Below, piece by piece: positions 16,208-56,860 of a DNA stretch of 64,000 nucleotides. The DNA comes from PVC group bacterium (lineage in GTDB: Bacteria; Auribacterota; Erginobacteria; Erginobacterales; Erginobacteraceae), in assembly GCA_043804695.1 (NCBI GenBank), contig JAZDIV010000033.1:1907-65906 (forward strand). The letters run 5' to 3'. The notes under the pieces were generated by a model. That model worked only from the letters and a program-made list of their open reading frames with translations, did not search any database and was not told the DNA's origin. The translations under genes were made by a program, and so were the position numbers. The first letter of the stretch is position 1. Each line of letters begins with the position of its first letter.

Positions 16208-16361
16208 CTCGTACCTCCTTATAAATTACTCGCTTCGCTCACAACTTTTGCCACTAAGACACCAAGACACCAAGAAAAACCAAATAAAGTGAGTATTTTT
16301 CTTTTCCCTCTTTTCTTGGTGTCTTTGTGCCTTGGTGGCTAATAATTTTTAAATTCCGAAA
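16208..16361 (-). repeat. leader cassette copy A (long ACCAAGACAC hairpin plus conserved 5' and 3' flanks) upstream of hcp
   Basis: 16250-16340 matches the reverse complement of 56726-56820, with 2 mismatches by eye in the first ~50 nt. The flanks tggctaata...aaattccgaaacag and aaaagtt... are shared. Both copies have the same orientation relative to the downstream ORF, with the hairpin ending about 41-43 nt before the start codon. Confidence 0.8.
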
Positions 16362-19834: not shown

Positions 19835-19885
19835 TTAATCCAGATTATTCATGAAAATTAAATACTTTCAAGAATAATCCAGGTT
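19835..19885. repeat. palindromic intergenic element, ATTCATGAA family (copy b, degenerate)
   Basis: ttaatccagattattcatgaaaattaaatactttcaagaataatccaggtt, 25 nt upstream of the tamA start. Confidence 0.7.
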
Positions 19886-21777: not shown

Positions 21778-21850
21778 GGGAATAGGGATTGGGGAATGGT
21801 GAATGGGTTATGAGCTGGCGTCTATTCCCCATTCCCTAATCCCCATTCCC
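21778..21850. repeat. ~30-bp-stem hairpin built from GGGAATAGGGA-type words between tamA and tamB
   Basis: gggaatagggattggggaatggtgaatggg pairs with ctattccccattccctaatccccattccc, about 26 of 30 complementary by eye. A related word, ggaatagggaacagggaata, occurs at 36687-36706. Confidence 0.65.
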
Positions 21851-21877
21851 CAAATGTCCTTCGTGGTCGGTACCTTT

Positions 21878-24562
21878 ATGAAAGTGACTCGTATATTAAA
21901 AACCATAATAAAATACGTCTTCCGCGCTCTGATGCTGCTCCTGGCACTGGTCGCGGTGCTCCTGGGCGTGATCCAGACCCCGGCCGGGAAGAGGCTGCTC
22001 GCCGACGGGATTACCGCTCTGGCGAGTTCGGACGACGGGTCGGGAGTGACTTTCAGATCGCTCTCCGGTTTCATCCCCTTCCGCTTCGGTGTCGGCGAAT
22101 TCAAAATCAGCGACCCGGAAGGTGACTGGCTGGTGGCAGAGGACATATCGCTGCGCATGGACGCGGGGAGCCTCCTCCTTTTCCGCCTCCGGGCGGAAGA
22201 GGTGACCGCCGGGAGGGTCACCTGGCGGAGGCTGCCGGCAGGGACGGATGACGACAGGAGAGCAGAGGACCCGGAGGAGGAGGGTTTCACCCCCCGGGAC
22301 ATCCCCTCCTTTGCCGTGGAGCGCCTGTGGATAAAAAACCTGACCGCGGAAGAATCCCTGCCGGGGAAACGGATTGTCGCCGAGCTGAAAGGACATGTCC
22401 GCAACGATTCGGCCGGCGGCGCCGGCGTCAACCTGGCCCTGAAACCGGTCGGTCGGGATGGTGATGACCTGACCGTGGCGGGGATGGCGGCGGCCGATCT
22501 GTCATCCCTTTCCCTGGACATCAAGCTCGACGAAGAAGCGGGAGGGAACCTGGGAAGCCTGATCATTCCCGGGGACTCCGTGCCTCTCTCCCTCCGGCTG
22601 CATGGCGGGGGACCGTGGGAAGCCTGCCGGGTCAGGCTGGCGGTCCGGGCCGCGGAGCGCGGAGAGCTGGACCTGGACGTCGTCTTCGACATCTCCCGCA
22701 CGCTGGCGGAGGGCACGCTGACGGCGGCCATTACCCGGCTGCCGGGGCCGGCGGGCGGAATCGAGAGCGGGCGGCTGTCGGCCCGGCTGGCCGTCGAAAA
22801 CGGCCGGCAGAACATATCCGCCCGGATCGAGGCGGACGGCCTGAAAACGCCCCTGGGGCACGTCGAACGGATCGAGGCGACCGTTGACGGCACCGACATC
22901 CTGCAGGATCCCCGCGGGACCGTCGAGTTCACCGCCCACGGCCTTCGCCCCGCTCCTCCGGGAGCGGAAGAGATGGCGGAGGCAGAGCTGGCCCGAACCG
23001 TCACCGGCCGGCTCACCCTCCGGGACACGGATCACCGGCCCCGGGCTGACCTGGAGATTCAGATCGAAAAATACGCCCTGCCCGGATCGCCCATCAGCCC
23101 GGCGGGGACGCGGCGGCTTACGATCCAGGCTCACCTCGAGGACGGCCAAATCCACGCCGAGCTCGACAGCGGCCGGGAGGGGGACATCCTTCTGCAGGCG
23201 AAGATGACCGCGAAGGCCGACTTCTCCCTCGCTCCCCTCATCTTCCGCCTCGACGAAGGGGGGCCGATCGAAGGCGAGCTTTCGGCGCGGCTCGATCTTT
23301 CTTTTCTGAACAACCGCCTGGCCCTCTCCCGCCAGAGCCTCCGCGGCACTCTCAGCGCCGACCTCACCGCCGGGGGCACCATCCGGAAACCGGAGCTGAA
23401 CGGAGAGATCAGCCTCCGCAAGGGAGAATATCAGAACCTGGTTTCCGGGACGGTCCTCAGCGGCCTGACCGCGACCGTGAAAGCCAAGTCAGACCGCCTG
23501 GAAATCACCGAGCTGTCGGCCCGGACGCCGGCGGGGGGAAAGATCTCCCTGACCGGCCATGCCCGGCTCTCTCCCCGGGACGGTTTTCCCCTTTCCCTGT
23601 CACTCCTGCTGACAGATGCCCAGCTGGTGGACATGGAGATGGTAACGGCAGCGCTGGCCGGGAAGATAGACCTGGAAGGAAGCCTGGAAAAGAGCCGCCT
23701 CGGCGGAAAGATAACGATCAAGAAAGCGGAAGGGCGCATCCCGAGCAAATTGTCCTCCGGGGTACCGGAGATCACCGTCACCGAGATCAACAAACCGGGG
23801 GGGACGGCGGTTCCTCACCCCGCGGCTTCCTCTTCCTTCCTGAAAACGGTCGCCCTCGATCTCCGCCTCACGGCCCCGGAAGACGTATTCATCAAAGGCC
23901 GGGGACTGGATTCCGAGTGGAAGGCCGATGTCACCGCCACCGGGACGGCCGACGCCCCTTCCCTGCGCGGCGGCATCACCCTGCTCGACGGCATCTTTAT
24001 TTTCATGGGGGAAGAGCTCAAGCTGGAAAACTGCAGCATCATGATGGACGGCGGCTTCCCCCCGGTCCCGCAGCTGAAGATCAACGCCCGGATCGTGAAG
24101 TCGGACATCACGATCACGCTCCAGGTAGTCGGCCCGGTCAACGCCCCGGAGGTGATCCTCTCATCCCAGCCCCCCTACCCGGCCGACGAGATCCTCGCCC
24201 GGCTCCTTTACGGGCGCCCGGCATCTCAGCTGAGCGGCCTCCAGGCTTTGCGGATAGCCGACGGGCTCCGGACACTGCAGGGGAAAGGAGGCATCCTTGA
24301 CCGCCTGACCGGATGGACTTCCTTCCTGGGGAATGTCCAGGTTGATTTCACGGAGCTGGAGGGAAGCACCGACCAGACCGCGGTCCGGGTCCGGTGGAGC
24401 CTGAGCAAGAACTTCTATGTTGAAAACCAGCACTCCATTGATGCCCGCGACAATCTCTTCCTGGCCCGCTGGGACCTGACCCGAAGACTCCAGCTCCGCA
24501 CCCAGTCGGGCTACGGTTTTCTCGGGGACGCCGTTTACCTGCGTTACCAGTGGGATTATTAA
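21878..24562 (+). CDS. tamB: TamB-like translocation and assembly module protein (DUF490)
   Basis: N-terminal TM (FRALMLLLALVAVLLGV). C-terminus WSLSKNFYVENQHS...YLRYQWDY is typical of DUF490. The start was chosen downstream of the hairpin; 21803 and 21854 are alternatives. Confidence 0.8.
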   Translation: MKVTRILKTIIKYVFRALMLLLALVAVLLGVIQTPAGKRLLADGITALASSDDGSGVTFRSLSGFIPFRFGVGEFKISDPEGDWLVAEDISLRMDAGSLLLFRLRAEEVTAGRVTWRRLPAGTDDDRRAEDPEEEGFTPRDIPSFAVERLWIKNLTAEESLPGKRIVAELKGHVRNDSAGGAGVNLALKPVGRDGDDLTVAGMAAADLSSLSLDIKLDEEAGGNLGSLIIPGDSVPLSLRLHGGGPWEACRVRLAVRAAERGELDLDVVFDISRTLAEGTLTAAITRLPGPAGGIESGRLSARLAVENGRQNISARIEADGLKTPLGHVERIEATVDGTDILQDPRGTVEFTAHGLRPAPPGAEEMAEAELARTVTGRLTLRDTDHRPRADLEIQIEKYALPGSPISPAGTRRLTIQAHLEDGQIHAELDSGREGDILLQAKMTAKADFSLAPLIFRLDEGGPIEGELSARLDLSFLNNRLALSRQSLRGTLSADLTAGGTIRKPELNGEISLRKGEYQNLVSGTVLSGLTATVKAKSDRLEITELSARTPAGGKISLTGHARLSPRDGFPLSLSLLLTDAQLVDMEMVTAALAGKIDLEGSLEKSRLGGKITIKKAEGRIPSKLSSGVPEITVTEINKPGGTAVPHPAASSSFLKTVALDLRLTAPEDVFIKGRGLDSEWKADVTATGTADAPSLRGGITLLDGIFIFMGEELKLENCSIMMDGGFPPVPQLKINARIVKSDITITLQVVGPVNAPEVILSSQPPYPADEILARLLYGRPASQLSGLQALRIADGLRTLQGKGGILDRLTGWTSFLGNVQVDFTELEGSTDQTAVRVRWSLSKNFYVENQHSIDARDNLFLARWDLTRRLQLRTQSGYGFLGDAVYLRYQWDY

Positions 24563-24611
24563 ACCGGATTATTCATGAAAATTTTCAATTTCCATGAATA
24601 ATCCGGTTTAA
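24560..24611. repeat. palindromic intergenic element, ATTCATGAA family (copy c)
   Basis: taaaccggattattcatgaaaattttcaatttccatgaataatccggtttaa. The tamB stop codon TAA is part of the left arm. Confidence 0.8.
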
Positions 24612-24680
24612 TTAATCGTTGATCACGATGTCGACCGGTGATAGAGTATTTGTTCCTTAATCTTCGTCATTGTTTAAAAC

Positions 24681-24724
24681 TAATCCGATTTCTGCCTGCC
24701 TGTCGGCAGGCAGAAATCGGATTA
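24681..24724 (+). promoter_or_regulatory. perfect 20-bp stem / 4-nt loop hairpin in the 5' leader of CDS 24741
   Basis: taatccgatttctgcctgcc-tgtc-ggcaggcagaaatcggatta, ending 5 nt before the AAGGAGA RBS. Confidence 0.55.
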
Positions 24725-24740
24725 ACAAGGAGAAAGATGC

Positions 24741-25499
24741 ATGAAAACACCGCCGCCGGTCAAGGTATCCCAGGACAAGATCACCTTCGATGTCAGCGAG
24801 ATCGAGGCTGTTCTCCAGGCCCCCCCGATGGACGTCAAGCCGTTCGAACCACGCTCGGTCCTGCTGAAGAACAAGGCGGGCGCGACCAAGACCATGCTGG
24901 TCCGAGAGGCGAGGCTGGAAGAGGCCACGCCGCTGCTTAAACTCATCCGGGAGAAATTTCTCCAGGAAGAGAACCTGGAAGACGTGCCGGACTTCTATGA
25001 CATCGTCGGGGCCCGGGTCTACGCCGAGATCCTGGGCTGGTACCGTCGCCGCCTGAAAGACCCCTACACGCTGGTCGGCCTCTGCGACGGGGAGCTGACC
25101 GCCTTTTGCAACGGCCGGCTGATGAACGAGGAGATCAACATCAGTCTCCACACGATGGCGTTCGACCGCGGCTTCCGGGCCGGGGCGGCCATGTACTTCA
25201 TCAAGTGCCAGTACTGCTTCGACGACCTCGGACAGGACGAGTTCTGGTCGACGTTCGAGAGCTACAACGGCTGGAAGCGCTGGGGCTTCGGGATGGCGCA
25301 GCCGTCGTACCCCTGGCCCGATCTCCAGCATGAACTGGGGGGGGGCCGGGTCTATTACATCACCAAGAAGTACTGGGAGACCTCCGTCAAGAACTACCTG
25401 GTCCAGATGTACGACATCACGGTCGACCGGGATGTTTCCGAGGAGCTGCTGGCGAAGAACGAGGTCCTCCATCTTCCCGAGGATGTAGCCGGAGAGTAA
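24741..25499 (+). CDS. hypothetical protein (possible acyltransferase-like fold, unassigned)
   Basis: Good RBS, an intrinsic terminator downstream, and an amino-acid composition that looks like a genuine protein. No motif I can name. Confidence 0.65.
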   Translation: MKTPPPVKVSQDKITFDVSEIEAVLQAPPMDVKPFEPRSVLLKNKAGATKTMLVREARLEEATPLLKLIREKFLQEENLEDVPDFYDIVGARVYAEILGWYRRRLKDPYTLVGLCDGELTAFCNGRLMNEEINISLHTMAFDRGFRAGAAMYFIKCQYCFDDLGQDEFWSTFESYNGWKRWGFGMAQPSYPWPDLQHELGGGRVYYITKKYWETSVKNYLVQMYDITVDRDVSEELLAKNEVLHLPEDVAGE

Positions 25500-29988: not shown

Positions 29989-30033
29989 CCCGGATTATTC
30001 ATGAAAATTAAAAATGTTCATGAATAATCCAGG
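29989..30033. repeat. palindromic intergenic element, ATTCATGAA family (copy d)
   Basis: cccggattattcatgaaaattaaaaatgttcatgaataatccagg. Confidence 0.8.
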
Positions 30034-30071
30034 TAATCGCTTATCGTTCCCTGTATTAGGAATACATCGGG

Positions 30072-32730: not shown

Positions 32731-32785
32731 TATTCTCCTGGTCTGATTGTTTTTCACTCTATTTTATAGGTTTTATTCAAAACTA

Positions 32786-32809
32786 ACCCGATTTATGCAT
32801 AAATCGGGT
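32786..32809. repeat. short palindrome acccgatttatgcataaatcgggt
   Basis: Perfect 10-bp arms. It overlaps the stop codon of the upstream (minus-strand) gene. Confidence 0.6.
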
Positions 32810-34611
32810 CAGCGCGTCACCGGGATGTCGCCGGCGGACCCGAAATACAGCCGGGTGACGCCCCGGATCGCCCACAGCCCGGAAGCAGCCCGGAAGATAC
32901 CGATCTCCTGATTGCCGTTCCCGGAGTACCCGGCGGGGACCGGACGGTCGTTCCCGCTCCCGAAGTAGGCCCGGGTTATCCCACGGATCGCCCATAGACC
33001 CCCCGCCCCGGCGGGGCGGAAGATACCCGCCTCGGCCGTCCCGTCGCCGTCAAAATCCCCCGGAACCGGCTGACCGCTCCCGAAATAGAACCGGCTGATG
33101 CCCCGGACCGCCCAGAGACCGTTGGCGGAGCGGAAGACGGCGAGATCGAAAGCTCCGTCCCCATTGTAATCTTCCGGGACCGCCGTGTCGAGGGACGACC
33201 CGAAATAGGCCCGGGTTATCCCCCGGGCCGTCCAGAGCCCTCCTGAAGACCGGAAGATCGCGATGTCGGCGCCCCCGGCGCCGTCGTAGTCGCCGGGCAC
33301 CGGCTGGTCGCCCGGTCTCCCGAAGTAGGCTCGGGTCAGACCCCTCACCGCCCAGAGACCGGCGGAGGAACGAAAGACCGCAATCTCGGCGCTCCCGTTG
33401 CCGTCATAATCGCCGGGAGCGGTGGTGGTGCCGGAGTCGCCGAAGTAGGACCGGGTCACCCCCCGGACCGCCCAGAGGCCGGTCTCCCCCCGGAAGATAG
33501 CGATGTCGGCGGTGCCGTCGCCGTCGTAGTCCCCTCCGGCCAGGACCGGAGGAGCTTCCGGGCGCCCCCGGTAGTAGTCGGAAGCGATGCCGGCGGTGTA
33601 CGCGGTCCAGGCGGCGGGGGACGAGTTGATCCGAAGGTCCGACCAGCTCCCGTCGTCATTCTCCCACCGCTCGGAGTAGACGACCGCGACCCGGACCCGG
33701 GGATAAACGGACGGCAGGGAGGCCAGCGCCCCCGTATACCAGGCCGCCTTGTCCCCCTTCAGCGGGTACTCCCCCACCCCCCATTCGGCCAGGATCAGCG
33801 GTTTCTCGGCGGAAAGAGCACAGATCGCGCTGTACGCCGGCGTCATCAGGGCTTCGAAACTCTCCCAGTCCTCATCGGCATACTGGACCCCGTAAACGCT
33901 GAAGCCGAGCCAGTCGACATAGCCGTCCCCGGGGTAGTAGGCGGCGATCGAGTTCCAGGGCTCATCAGGAAACGACTCGTGGTTGGCGTGAAAATACCAG
34001 GTGACATTGTCCGCCCCCCGGGTCCGGAAAAGATCGACGATGTGGCGGAAGGCGTCGACGAACCGTTCCGGCCCGTCGGCTTTCGTTGGGTCGCCGTAAC
34101 CGGTGGCGGCGGCGCCGCCCTGATAGGTCCCGGACCAGGGGAACCAGTCGCCGTTCATCTCCACCCCGAAGTTGACCATCACCGGCCTCCCGAAGGCCTT
34201 CACCCGATCGGCCCAGGCGGAGAGAAAAACATCAAAGTCCCCGTCAATGATCTTCTGGAGCGAATAGGCCGGCTGATATCCTTCCGTCCAGTAGGGCTCC
34301 CCCCAGGGCATCAGCCGGAGCATCGGTACCGCCCCGTACCGCCCCATCGCCTCCAGCTGCTCCCCGGAGACCGTCTGCTCCCCCCAGAAGACCGAGAAGG
34401 GGGAGAAGGCGACCGCCTTCCCGGTCAGCTGCTCGAGATTCTCCAATTCCCCCGCGGTAACATCGTCCTCGTGTTCGCCCCAGCCCGGGAAGACCCCGGT
34501 GTAGCAGCCGTACCCGGGCGGGAGGACCGCCCCCCGGGCGCCGGGCGCGCCGGGGGGAGAAAAGACGGCGAACCCTGCCGCCAGCATAATGGCTGTGAGT
34601 TTCTTGCCCAT
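32809..34611 (-). CDS. secreted GH26-like glycoside hydrolase fused to six GDYDGDG/GLWAVRG repeat units
   Basis: GGGGGAGG RBS before ATG 34611. Signal peptide. VMVNFGVEMNGDWFPWSG and LAEWGVGEY segments are GH26/mannanase-like. Six ~40-aa repeats end in GDIPVTR-stop. Confidence 0.85.
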   Translation of the reverse strand: MGKKLTAIMLAAGFAVFSPPGAPGARGAVLPPGYGCYTGVFPGWGEHEDDVTAGELENLEQLTGKAVAFSPFSVFWGEQTVSGEQLEAMGRYGAVPMLRLMPWGEPYWTEGYQPAYSLQKIIDGDFDVFLSAWADRVKAFGRPVMVNFGVEMNGDWFPWSGTYQGGAAATGYGDPTKADGPERFVDAFRHIVDLFRTRGADNVTWYFHANHESFPDEPWNSIAAYYPGDGYVDWLGFSVYGVQYADEDWESFEALMTPAYSAICALSAEKPLILAEWGVGEYPLKGDKAAWYTGALASLPSVYPRVRVAVVYSERWENDDGSWSDLRINSSPAAWTAYTAGIASDYYRGRPEAPPVLAGGDYDGDGTADIAIFRGETGLWAVRGVTRSYFGDSGTTTAPGDYDGNGSAEIAVFRSSAGLWAVRGLTRAYFGRPGDQPVPGDYDGAGGADIAIFRSSGGLWTARGITRAYFGSSLDTAVPEDYNGDGAFDLAVFRSANGLWAVRGISRFYFGSGQPVPGDFDGDGTAEAGIFRPAGAGGLWAIRGITRAYFGSGNDRPVPAGYSGNGNQEIGIFRAASGLWAIRGVTRLYFGSAGDIPVTR

Positions 34612-39941: not shown

Positions 39942-40149
39942 TTAACCCGGATTATTCACGAAAACTTCGTTTTCGCTCATAACCGCCTGTGAGAAAGCAG
40001 ATTGCTTTCTCACAGGCTTCGACGCGGTGCTTCGCACCTTGCTCAGGGTTAACCCTGAGCGGAATCCTGAGCCAGTCGAAGGATGGAGTCGAAGCCCGGA
40101 GGGCGACTTGTTCAGGGAACCGTCAGGTTTCATGAATAAGTCGGGTTAA
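39942..40149. mobile_element. ~200-bp MITE-like long form of the ATTCATGAA palindromic element, between cusB and cusA
   Basis: Terminal inverted repeats are ttaacccggattattcacgaaaa (39942-39964) and tttcatgaataagtcgggttaa (40128-40149). The interior is a chain of hairpins (39986-40016 perfect 13-bp stem; 40041-40060). The right end supplies the cusB stop codon. Confidence 0.55.
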
Positions 40150-56340: not shown

Positions 56341-56382
56341 CCGGATTACTCATGAAAATTTTCTTTTTCATGAGTAATCCGG
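56341..56382. repeat. palindromic intergenic element, ATTCATGAA family (copy f, compensated variant)
   Basis: ccggattactcatgaaaa-ttttct-ttttcatgagtaatccgg is a perfect 18-bp stem. Both arms carry the T-to-C / A-to-G change relative to other copies. Confidence 0.8.
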
Positions 56383-56458
56383 ACTACCATTTATCGTTCA
56401 ACGCGTTACATATAGTAATTCCGATTATGCGGATACAGCAAACTATTTTTAAAATACC

Positions 56459-56489: not shown

Positions 56490-56519
56490 TTCTGTTTTTA
56501 CCGAGATAAAACTCTGTAA

Positions 56520-56668
56520 TCCGTATCTCCGACTCTGCGTCACTACGCCTCCGGGTATGTGCTCAGAGCGACAGGGTCCGGCTGGAAACGGCTGTGCCTC
56601 CCGCGTTTGGAAAGGAGATCGGCGGACCATTTTGCCGGCCCCCTCCGCGGGGGCCGGTTTTATTTTTA
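56520..56668 (+). ncRNA. candidate Moco/Tuco riboswitch with an intrinsic terminator expression platform
   Basis: Contains CCUCCGGG ... CCUCCCGCGUUUGGAAAGGAGAU, which resembles my recollection of the Moco motif conserved cores (CCUCCGAG ... CCCGCCUGGAAAGGAG). atctcc/ggagat could form P1. Followed by ccggccccc-tccgc-gggggccgg plus ttttattttt. It is upstream of tupABC. Not verified by covariance search. Confidence 0.5.
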
Positions 56669-56673
56669 ACTGT

Positions 56674-56860
56674 TTCGGAATTTTCAGCCTGAGGCTGATG
56701 CGCCTCTGGCGCACAATAAAATATTAGCCACCAAGACACAAAGGCACCAAAATAAAGAGGAAAAGGGGCAAAATACTCACCTTATTTGGTTTTTCTTAGT
56801 GTCTTGGTGTCTTAGTGGCGAAAAGTTAGCGCGGAGGCGCTAAGTTCTTCCAATCGGAAG
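56674..56860 (+). repeat. leader cassette copy B: 47-nt double hairpin, long ACCAAGACAC hairpin (56726-56820), and ttagcgc-ggag-gcgctaa leader upstream of tupA
   Basis: See 16208-16361. Copy A lacks only the ~37-nt double-hairpin segment; the flanks on either side align. Confidence 0.8.

Follow-up and report, generated by a model that had tools for sequence, protein, structure and literature searches.

Bacterial miniature inverted-repeat transposable elements (MITEs) form families of about 100-200 bp with a real interior, and they can supply stop codons and be co-transcribed with neighbouring genes. REPINs, which are grouped here with the repetitive extragenic palindromes (REPs), are short gene-end palindromes whose arms change together. 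Insertion sequences (ISs) of the IS1380 family tolerate imperfect alternative ends, as reported for ISEcp1 and ISPme1 (PMC9330008), and IS1380 transposases have served as a prokaryotic outgroup in work on piggyBac (PMC10813416). Our literature searches found no direct description of MITEs derived from IS1380 elements. Here we report on P1, a gene-less hairpin of about 45 bp (ATTCATGAA) that recurs in a 64,000-nucleotide stretch of DNA (hereafter the window) from an uncultured member of the Auribacterota, corresponding to positions 1907-65906 of contig C33 (JAZDIV010000033.1) in assembly GCA_043804695.1 (G000 below; 2.97 Mb, 155 contigs). Contig numbers refer to this assembly unless another genome is named. 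Taken jointly, the evidence makes it likely that P1 is a non-autonomous mini-transposon of an IS1380-family IS that spread at TTAA-like sites and whose two arms are symmetrised at the DNA level.

With up to 3 mismatches allowed, the window contains 17 occurrences of the hairpin half-site, GGATTATTCATGAA, compared with 3.4 expected, and none of 100 shuffled sequences reached this number. Across the genome we counted 148 half-sites with no more than 2 mismatches (50 of them exact) and 43 complete P1 hairpins located on 36 contigs, in which the starts of the half-sites are mostly 25 nt apart. P1-type elements range from 45 to 315 bp, lack an open reading frame (ORF) and are dispersed over at least 36 contigs. 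The original prediction, made on the window by itself, had listed six copies of a palindromic family; all six were recovered with refined coordinates, and the spread of the hairpins over 36 contigs means that the family is not bound to this contig. An inverted-repeat finder independently picked four of the window copies (c, d, a, and f, as I3, I14, I17, and I19), and the window copies folded as single-stranded DNA gave energies of -8 to -21 kcal/mol, with z values of -3.3 to -10.

The origin of the arms is evident from a 1,684-bp IS located at C19:16737-18420. The arm, TTAA followed by CCyGGATTATTCATGAA..., is the terminal inverted repeat of this IS, which comprises two inverted half-sites 1,684 bp apart around a single 459-aa ORF (C19:16843-18219) and has CTAA/CTAA flanks; a 17-nt arm, CCCGGATTATTCATGAA, is identical to both of its ends. 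The ORF encodes an IS1380-family transposase, matching NCBIfam NF033539 with 336.7 bits (cut-off 180) and Pfam PF13701 with 378 bits (3.8e-113). The likeness between P1 and the left end of the IS continues into the loop region (CATGAaAAtTGAAAAT vs CATGAgAAgTGAAAAT), so that P1 corresponds to the IS minus its interior, as opposed to a hairpin into which an IS had inserted. P1 is thus a minimal MITE, made up of two IS ends that abut each other. Some orphan half-sites precede a ribosome-binding site and an ORF, and at one extremity of contig C46, next to TTAA, there is another left end of the IS. By tblastn, G000 contains only one assembled transposase gene, and one full-length IS is assembled.

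Relatives of the IS in other genomes define the target site. In G006, a genome from another genus of the same family, an IS that is 61% identical has the ends CCCGAATTATTCATGAG and CCCGAATTATTCATAAG (...ATAAG) and CTAA/CTAA flanks. The GAATT variant of the end is common to the G006 IS and to the G006 hairpins (about 25 loci), while the GGATT variant is common to the IS and the hairpins of G000. More distant relatives (42-48% identity) were taken from public genomes: a Gammaproteobacteria metagenome-assembled genome (MAG) carries six IS copies with CCTGGATAATTCACGAA ends, five flanked by CTAG/CTAG and one by TTAG/TTAG, and an Acidobacteriota MAG carries three copies with TTAG/TTAG flanks. In total, the full-length ISs show direct flanks of CTAA/CTAA twice, TTAG/TTAG four times and CTAG/CTAG five times, which indicates a 4-bp direct duplication of YTAR; this clade is thus characterised by CC-initiated ends and a 4-bp direct duplication of a YTAR target. 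The TTAA edges of the hairpins, to which the original prediction had drawn attention, are therefore meaningful, TTAA being the target tetranucleotide of the cognate IS1380-family element. Among composite elements (described below), the flanks are TTAA/TTAA in copies c and e and in an element of the same-genus genome G001 (L072), and the non-palindromic TTAT/TTAT in a long element on C126. With a covariance model, the family was detected in 17 of 79 genomes of the phylum among the matches listed, both strands being counted, and it is dense within the same order (G000, G001, G013, and G006). In G006, the P1-type hairpins (L089-L095) are joined to another conserved body, in which ...CCTAAGTTATTCCCTGGCAATTCACAA directly precedes the hairpin; the hairpin module is hence paired with different interiors in different genera.

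The family had been characterised as REP/MITE-like, and the two halves of that description fared differently. The MITE half stands because the arms are IS1380-family ends. The REP half would have the hairpins spread by a REP-associated tyrosine transposase (RAYT) of the Y1/HUH type that recognises a single-stranded hairpin, which would suit short palindromes at gene ends with co-changing arms. The genome does contain six Y1-transposase-like genes (PF01797), at C62:5765-6076, C62:12037-12336, C43:49050-49373, C114:33349-33558, C12:3612-3875, and C51:10762-10944, yet the search for a cognate RAYT came out negative, as none of the six has a P1 or P2 (the second palindrome, see below) within 1.5 kb. 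In addition, the arms are the ends of a DDE transposon of the IS1380 family, the G006 hairpins follow the variant of the G006 IS, and TTAA-type flanks suit IS1380 and piggyBac instead. We consider spread by a RAYT very improbable. Two of the six Y1-like proteins (319 and 335 aa) have long C-terminal extensions.

In most copies the hairpin is part of a larger unit, which corrects the earlier description. At least 24 of the 43 P1 hairpins have a conserved one-sided tail at a fixed distance, ATTGTCGTTCAATGTATTATGAATAGCAAT..., and in complete long copies this tail runs for about 210 nt into a second palindrome, P2 (AACCCGATTTATGAATAAATCGGGTT), followed by TTAA. The long element is about 300 bp and non-coding, with a complete P1 as its left end and P2 as its right end. 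Read from the right end inward, P2 begins with CCCGATTTATTCATAAA, of which 14 of 17 positions equal the IS end, and its outer arm is a diverged copy of the IS end repeat. The mixing of P1-type and P2-type ends fits the tolerance of alternative ends in the IS1380 family. P2 forms a family in its own right, with 77 copies at no more than 1 mismatch per arm and about 75-100 genome-wide; its arms are AACCCGATTT..AAATCGGGTT, with a frequent G+C-rich loop extension (ATGCCTGCCTGCCGGCAGGCAGGCAT, ATGCCTGCC..GGCAGGCAT). Most P2 copies have a short one-sided CATTGTTCAAAAyT tail, and P2 often lies just ahead of a ribosome-binding site. RNAalifold predictions for 12 long elements, on both strands, yielded mainly the two terminal hairpins and little consistent interior structure. 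Each end holds an inward-facing extra end repeat, and use of an outer plus an inner repeat would release a solo hairpin while use of the two outer ones would release the whole element; such alternative repeat use by the transposase could in principle explain why composites are found alongside solo P1 and solo P2 hairpins.

Copy c displays the short form of this architecture: P1, a 69-nt body, an extended P2, and TTAA at both ends. Its P1 (24563-24607, flanks TTAA/TTAA) consists of two abutted IS1380-type terminal inverted repeats, ACCGGATTATTCATGAAAATT / AATTTCCATGAATAATCCGGT, with a C-to-A change at the third position of both arms (I3; 26-nt arms, 96% complementary; -21.3 kcal/mol, z -8.45). 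The left TTAA occupies 24559-24562 (unstranded) and contains the TAA with which the TamB gene at 21803-24562 terminates. The body (24612-24680, plus strand) ends in about 25 nt (CTTCGTCATTGTTTAAAACT) that match the stretch preceding P2 in long elements. The P2 (24681-24724, unstranded) carries the G+C-rich extension TAATCCGATTTCTGCCTGCC/GGCAGGCAGAAATCGGATTA and was also found as inverted repeat I12 (20-nt arms, 100%; -24.4 kcal/mol), and the TTAA at 24722-24725 closes the composite 5 nt before the ribosome-binding site of the gene at 24741-25499.

The remaining copies show various states of the same unit. Copy a (2723-2767; I17) has the flanks TTAA (2719-2722) and TTAT, GG-to-AA and CC-to-TT changes in both arms, and a body on the plus strand at 2768-2934 (ATTTGTCGTTCTATGTATTATGAATAGCAAT...; 167 nt) that lacks a P2 end; C33:4625-4840 aligns to positions 2-217 of the long-element reference, and an unrelated repeat of the CCAAGACAC type cuts the body short at about 2934. 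Short-unit hairpin repeats of this CCAAGACAC type abut or truncate P1 elements at 2680-2710, 2935-2960, 16247-16342, and 56726-56812. Copy b (19839-19883; flanks TTAA at 19835-19838 and TTGC) is decayed, with several one-arm changes, and lies 26 nt upstream of an Omp85/TamA gene. Composite d (29989-30071, plus strand) joins its P1 part (29989-30033; I14) to a short TCGTTC-box tail and the right half of a P2, GGAATACATCGGG. Copy e (39946-40145) is a 200-bp MITE with P1-type terminal repeats and another interior, flanked by TTAA at 39942-39945 and 40146-40149, and has relatives on C114 and C119. Copy f (56341-56382; I19) has perfect 18-nt arms (-18.7 kcal/mol, z -10) with a T-to-C change (ATTACTC) in both, and is followed by a tail of the long-element type, TTATCGTTCAACGCGTTACATATAGTAAT...GCGGATACAGCAAACT, at 56383-56450 on the plus strand. 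About 65 nt downstream of this tail we identified a Moco/tungsten riboswitch (RF01055, 69.8 bits) at 56515-56633. A solo P2, AACCCGATTTatgcatAAATCGGGTC, is present at 32785-32810 (C33:34691-34716; unstranded). Elsewhere in the genome, about 16 copies of a third, small hairpin, ACCCCGATTG-aat-CAATCGGGGT, form another family (for example C9:19611-19633, C19:119-141, and C48:19118-19140); most are bordered on one side by a box resembling CTGTTGGTTAAC / GTTAACCAACAG and on the other by a conserved stretch of the 'ctacttaatag' type.

Comparison with G001 showed that these elements differ in presence between species. Composite d (about 83 bp) is missing from the orthologous site of G001, where the convergent genes are 26 nt apart as opposed to 109 nt in the window; the flanks of this site, the only usable empty one, are TCAG/TTAC against TTAC in G001, too diverged for an exact duplication to be recognised. 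For copies b and c, the G001 sites are taken by other sequence or elements and gave no clean empty site. At another locus, G001 carries TTAA, a P2-type end, a TCGTTCAA box, P1, and TTAA on the stop codon of a gene, and in G000 the same TTAA is occupied by an extended P2. The element at C127:10907-11152 was found with the same flanks in the opposite orientation at two loci of G001 (L065, C38:3243-3699; L066, C35:242183-242639), which points to one of two events, an inversion between the hairpin ends or an excision with return to the same TTAA.

The position of the hairpins relative to genes is informative about their possible functions. By crude gene calls, which assign about 83% of the genome to coding sequence, 47 of 48 hairpins are intergenic. 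The TAA of TTAA places five of them directly at a stop codon, and in four others a TGA located 16 nt into the hairpin serves as the stop; many copies lie at or near gene ends, probably because the TAA in the TTAA target serves as a stop codon. Both stop codons that had been attributed to the elements are real: TamB (Pfam PF04357) is terminated by the left TTAA of copy c, and for a CusB-like gene (PF16576) the terminating TAA comes from the right TTAA of copy e. The latter copy is inserted between cusB-like and cusA-like genes, inside a cusCBA-like operon of the resistance-nodulation-division (RND) efflux type; if this operon is intact, copy e must be co-transcribed. The hairpins occupy every gene-orientation context (16 ++, 13 --, 11 convergent, and 8 divergent).

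This distribution bears on the possibility that a dimeric transcription factor uses the palindrome as its operator, with the copies marking a regulon. The perfect dyad of the core, ATTATTCATGAATAAT, and the location of some copies upstream of genes (tamA) or of the Moco riboswitch would be compatible with such a role. However, many copies sit at convergent gene ends, on stop codons, or within operons, the neighbouring genes are functionally unrelated, and the sequence is a transposon end. Moreover, variation in the arms affects many positions and is invariably paired, a feature that a protein-binding site would not need. An operator is hardly credible on these grounds. Two further candidates were rejected. 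Rho-independent terminators do not fit A+T-rich stems followed by TTAA and then unrelated sequence without a T-run, and the earlier statement that the hairpins lack U-tracts and are not classical terminators holds. A mobile promoter or leader cassette was not supported, since the gene beyond P2 is co-oriented in 15 of 45 oriented cases and opposite in 30 of 45. In some long-element bodies (body B, for example C43:11560-11698, C139:4569-4700, and C120:9486-9620), a sigma-70-like box close to consensus, TTAACA-N16-TATAAT, is aimed at P2 from about 60 nt upstream of it; outward promoters are known in the IS1380-family elements ISEcp1 and ISPme1 (PMC9330008).

The most conspicuous property of the hairpins is the concerted change of their arms. 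The paired substitutions singled out in the original prediction, in copy f (ATTACTCATGA/TCATGAGTAAT) and copy a (CCTAAATT/AATTTAGG), are real, and the both-arm changes survive a full alignment of all copies. In 58 distinct P1 copies from at least five genomes, 16 of 24 stem pairs were changed on both sides (86 cells), a level matched by none of 500 shuffles and far above that of slid controls. When distinct events were counted in 65 copies, we obtained 24 types of double change (68 cells), against an expectation of about 2.6 coincidences under independent mutation of the arms. P2 and its G+C-rich extension show both-arm substitutions as P1 does.

Covariation of this strength, together with very stable stems, intergenic location, the many copies at gene ends or in operons (such as copy e), and the frequent placement of P2 just before a ribosome-binding site, is what would be expected if the hairpins were kept by selection as RNA stem-loops, with 3'-end protection, pausing or termination, or structure in a 5' untranslated region as the benefit and compensatory evolution as the cause of the paired changes. 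The pattern of the substitutions argues otherwise. G.U mismatches (9) do not outnumber A.C mismatches (10) when the presumed transcribed strand is read, in a small test of 19 informative mismatches that relies on crude gene calls. The double changes comprise 11 transitions and 13 transversions, the latter having no wobble intermediate, in a ratio like that of the single changes (15 and 19), and the double-change types show no bias towards routes via wobble pairs. The occupation of every gene-orientation context and the lack of a U-tract also speak against an RNA function, and an Rfam 15 search of the window at the gathering score matched only the Moco riboswitch and nothing on P1, P2, or the long elements.

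A further argument against selection on RNA comes from the flanks, since the tetranucleotide of the target DNA is symmetrised too. Inverted flanks outnumber direct ones by 6 to 1 among hairpins with perfect flanks and by 16 to 3 among those with imperfect flanks (for example TTAG...CTAA and GTAG...CTAC), unlike the direct flanks of the full-length ISs. In contrast, end pairs that are distant from each other remain unsymmetrised: this is the case for copy e, for the outer ends of the long elements, and for the IS beyond 16 nt. The end repeats of copy e differ between CACGAA and CATGAA and between GGATT and GACTT. Because there is no G.U excess and no transition bias, and because flanks are symmetrised and distant ends are not, we favour homogenisation of the palindrome at the DNA level over RNA-hairpin selection as the source of the covariation, and we regard the latter as unlikely. 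Template switching at quasi-palindromes is an established mutational mechanism in Escherichia coli (PMC7202029), and it or hairpin-templated correction would be expected to leave a pattern of this kind.

These observations can be combined in a scheme in which the DDE transposase of the resident C19 IS most likely acts in trans on P1-type ends and inserts them at TTAA-like (YTAR) sites. The substrate would be a pair of IS ends (CCyGGATTATTCATGAAAAT) set tip-outwards in P1, 5-11 nt apart, and flanked by TTAA. After insertion, the closely spaced arms would be kept complementary through a DNA-level process that transfers a change from either arm to its partner, the likeliest being intra-strand template switching or hairpin-templated repair at quasi-palindromes. 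In a more daring version, P1 would move as a cruciform, the hairpin of each strand representing a complete IS-end duplex so that the tips and the TTAA come together at a four-way junction. We judge this doubtful. If true, transposition would need pairing of the arms and would impose selection for compensatory changes on the element itself, which would explain why covariation is limited to closely spaced ends, and the geometry of the substrate would be one not yet described for a DDE (piggyBac-like) transposase.

Several points weigh against a mini-transposon that is mobilised by the IS and symmetrised as DNA, the small size of the strand test described above being one of them. The two tips of a 45-bp duplex cannot be bent together, and thus the movement of a solo P1 is hard to explain; some solo P1 copies may have arisen in place, by deletion from longer elements. 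The search for a clean empty site for a solo P1 found none. The flanks of P1 hairpins are mostly palindromic (TTAA, CTAG), so that a target duplication is unprovable from them, and the informative ones are inverted and not direct. Furthermore, G001 and G013 contain dozens of hairpins, yet no IS1380 transposase was detectable in them at E<=1e-20. MAGs often lose multi-copy ISs, and the missing transposase may reflect such a loss of repeats or a decayed autonomous partner; the absence is weak, and current mobilisation is unproven.

The mini-transposon reading has consequences for the annotation of this lineage, in which P1, P2, and the 200-bp and approximately 300-bp forms account for a large share of the intergenic repeats. 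Hairpins of seemingly regulatory character that lie on stop codons, at the ends of genes, or ahead of ribosome-binding sites are transposon ends, which guards against over-reading them as regulators, and the at least 24 independent double substitutions demonstrate that covariation in a hairpin does not on its own count as evidence for a functional RNA.

Among known systems, the closest is the IS1380 family itself (IS1380, ISEcp1, ISPme1), with which the elements share the transposase type (NF033539/PF13701), ends that start with CC and, in full-length copies, a 4-bp direct duplication; they differ from it in being gene-less, down to 45 bp in size, and in having hairpin ends that consist of the end repeat plus its own inverted copy. 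Like bacterial MITEs (Correia/NEMIS of Neisseria, ERIC, RUP, and Chunjie of Geobacter), they are short, non-coding, bounded by inverted repeats, intergenic or within operons, and linked to a cognate IS, whereas P1 has nearly no interior, is also the end module of a larger element, and shows systematic paired arm substitutions. The resemblance to REP/REPIN elements is one of behaviour only (hairpins, pairing kept by double changes, high copy number at gene ends), as P1 has no associated RAYT, its arms are DDE-transposon ends, and its flanks are of the TTAA type. With piggyBac and its MITEs, the elements have in common, as read from the sequences here, CCC...GGG ends, a TTAA-like target, and, in full-length ISs, a 4-bp duplication, but they reside in a bacterial host, have a relaxed YTAR target (CTAA, TTAG, CTAG), and their IS encodes a much smaller transposase (459 aa). 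Template-switch mutagenesis (PMC7202029) explains the copying from arm to arm whatever the base change, although it is a mutational mechanism rather than an element family and was shown in E. coli. Together, these comparisons place P1 in a MITE system of an IS1380 element, a new family of a known kind, which adds a well-documented case to the little-described IS1380-derived MITEs and strengthens the parallel with piggyBac. It is distinguished by ends that are only 5-11 nt apart, hairpin end modules that recombine into composites, and the concerted change of its arms.

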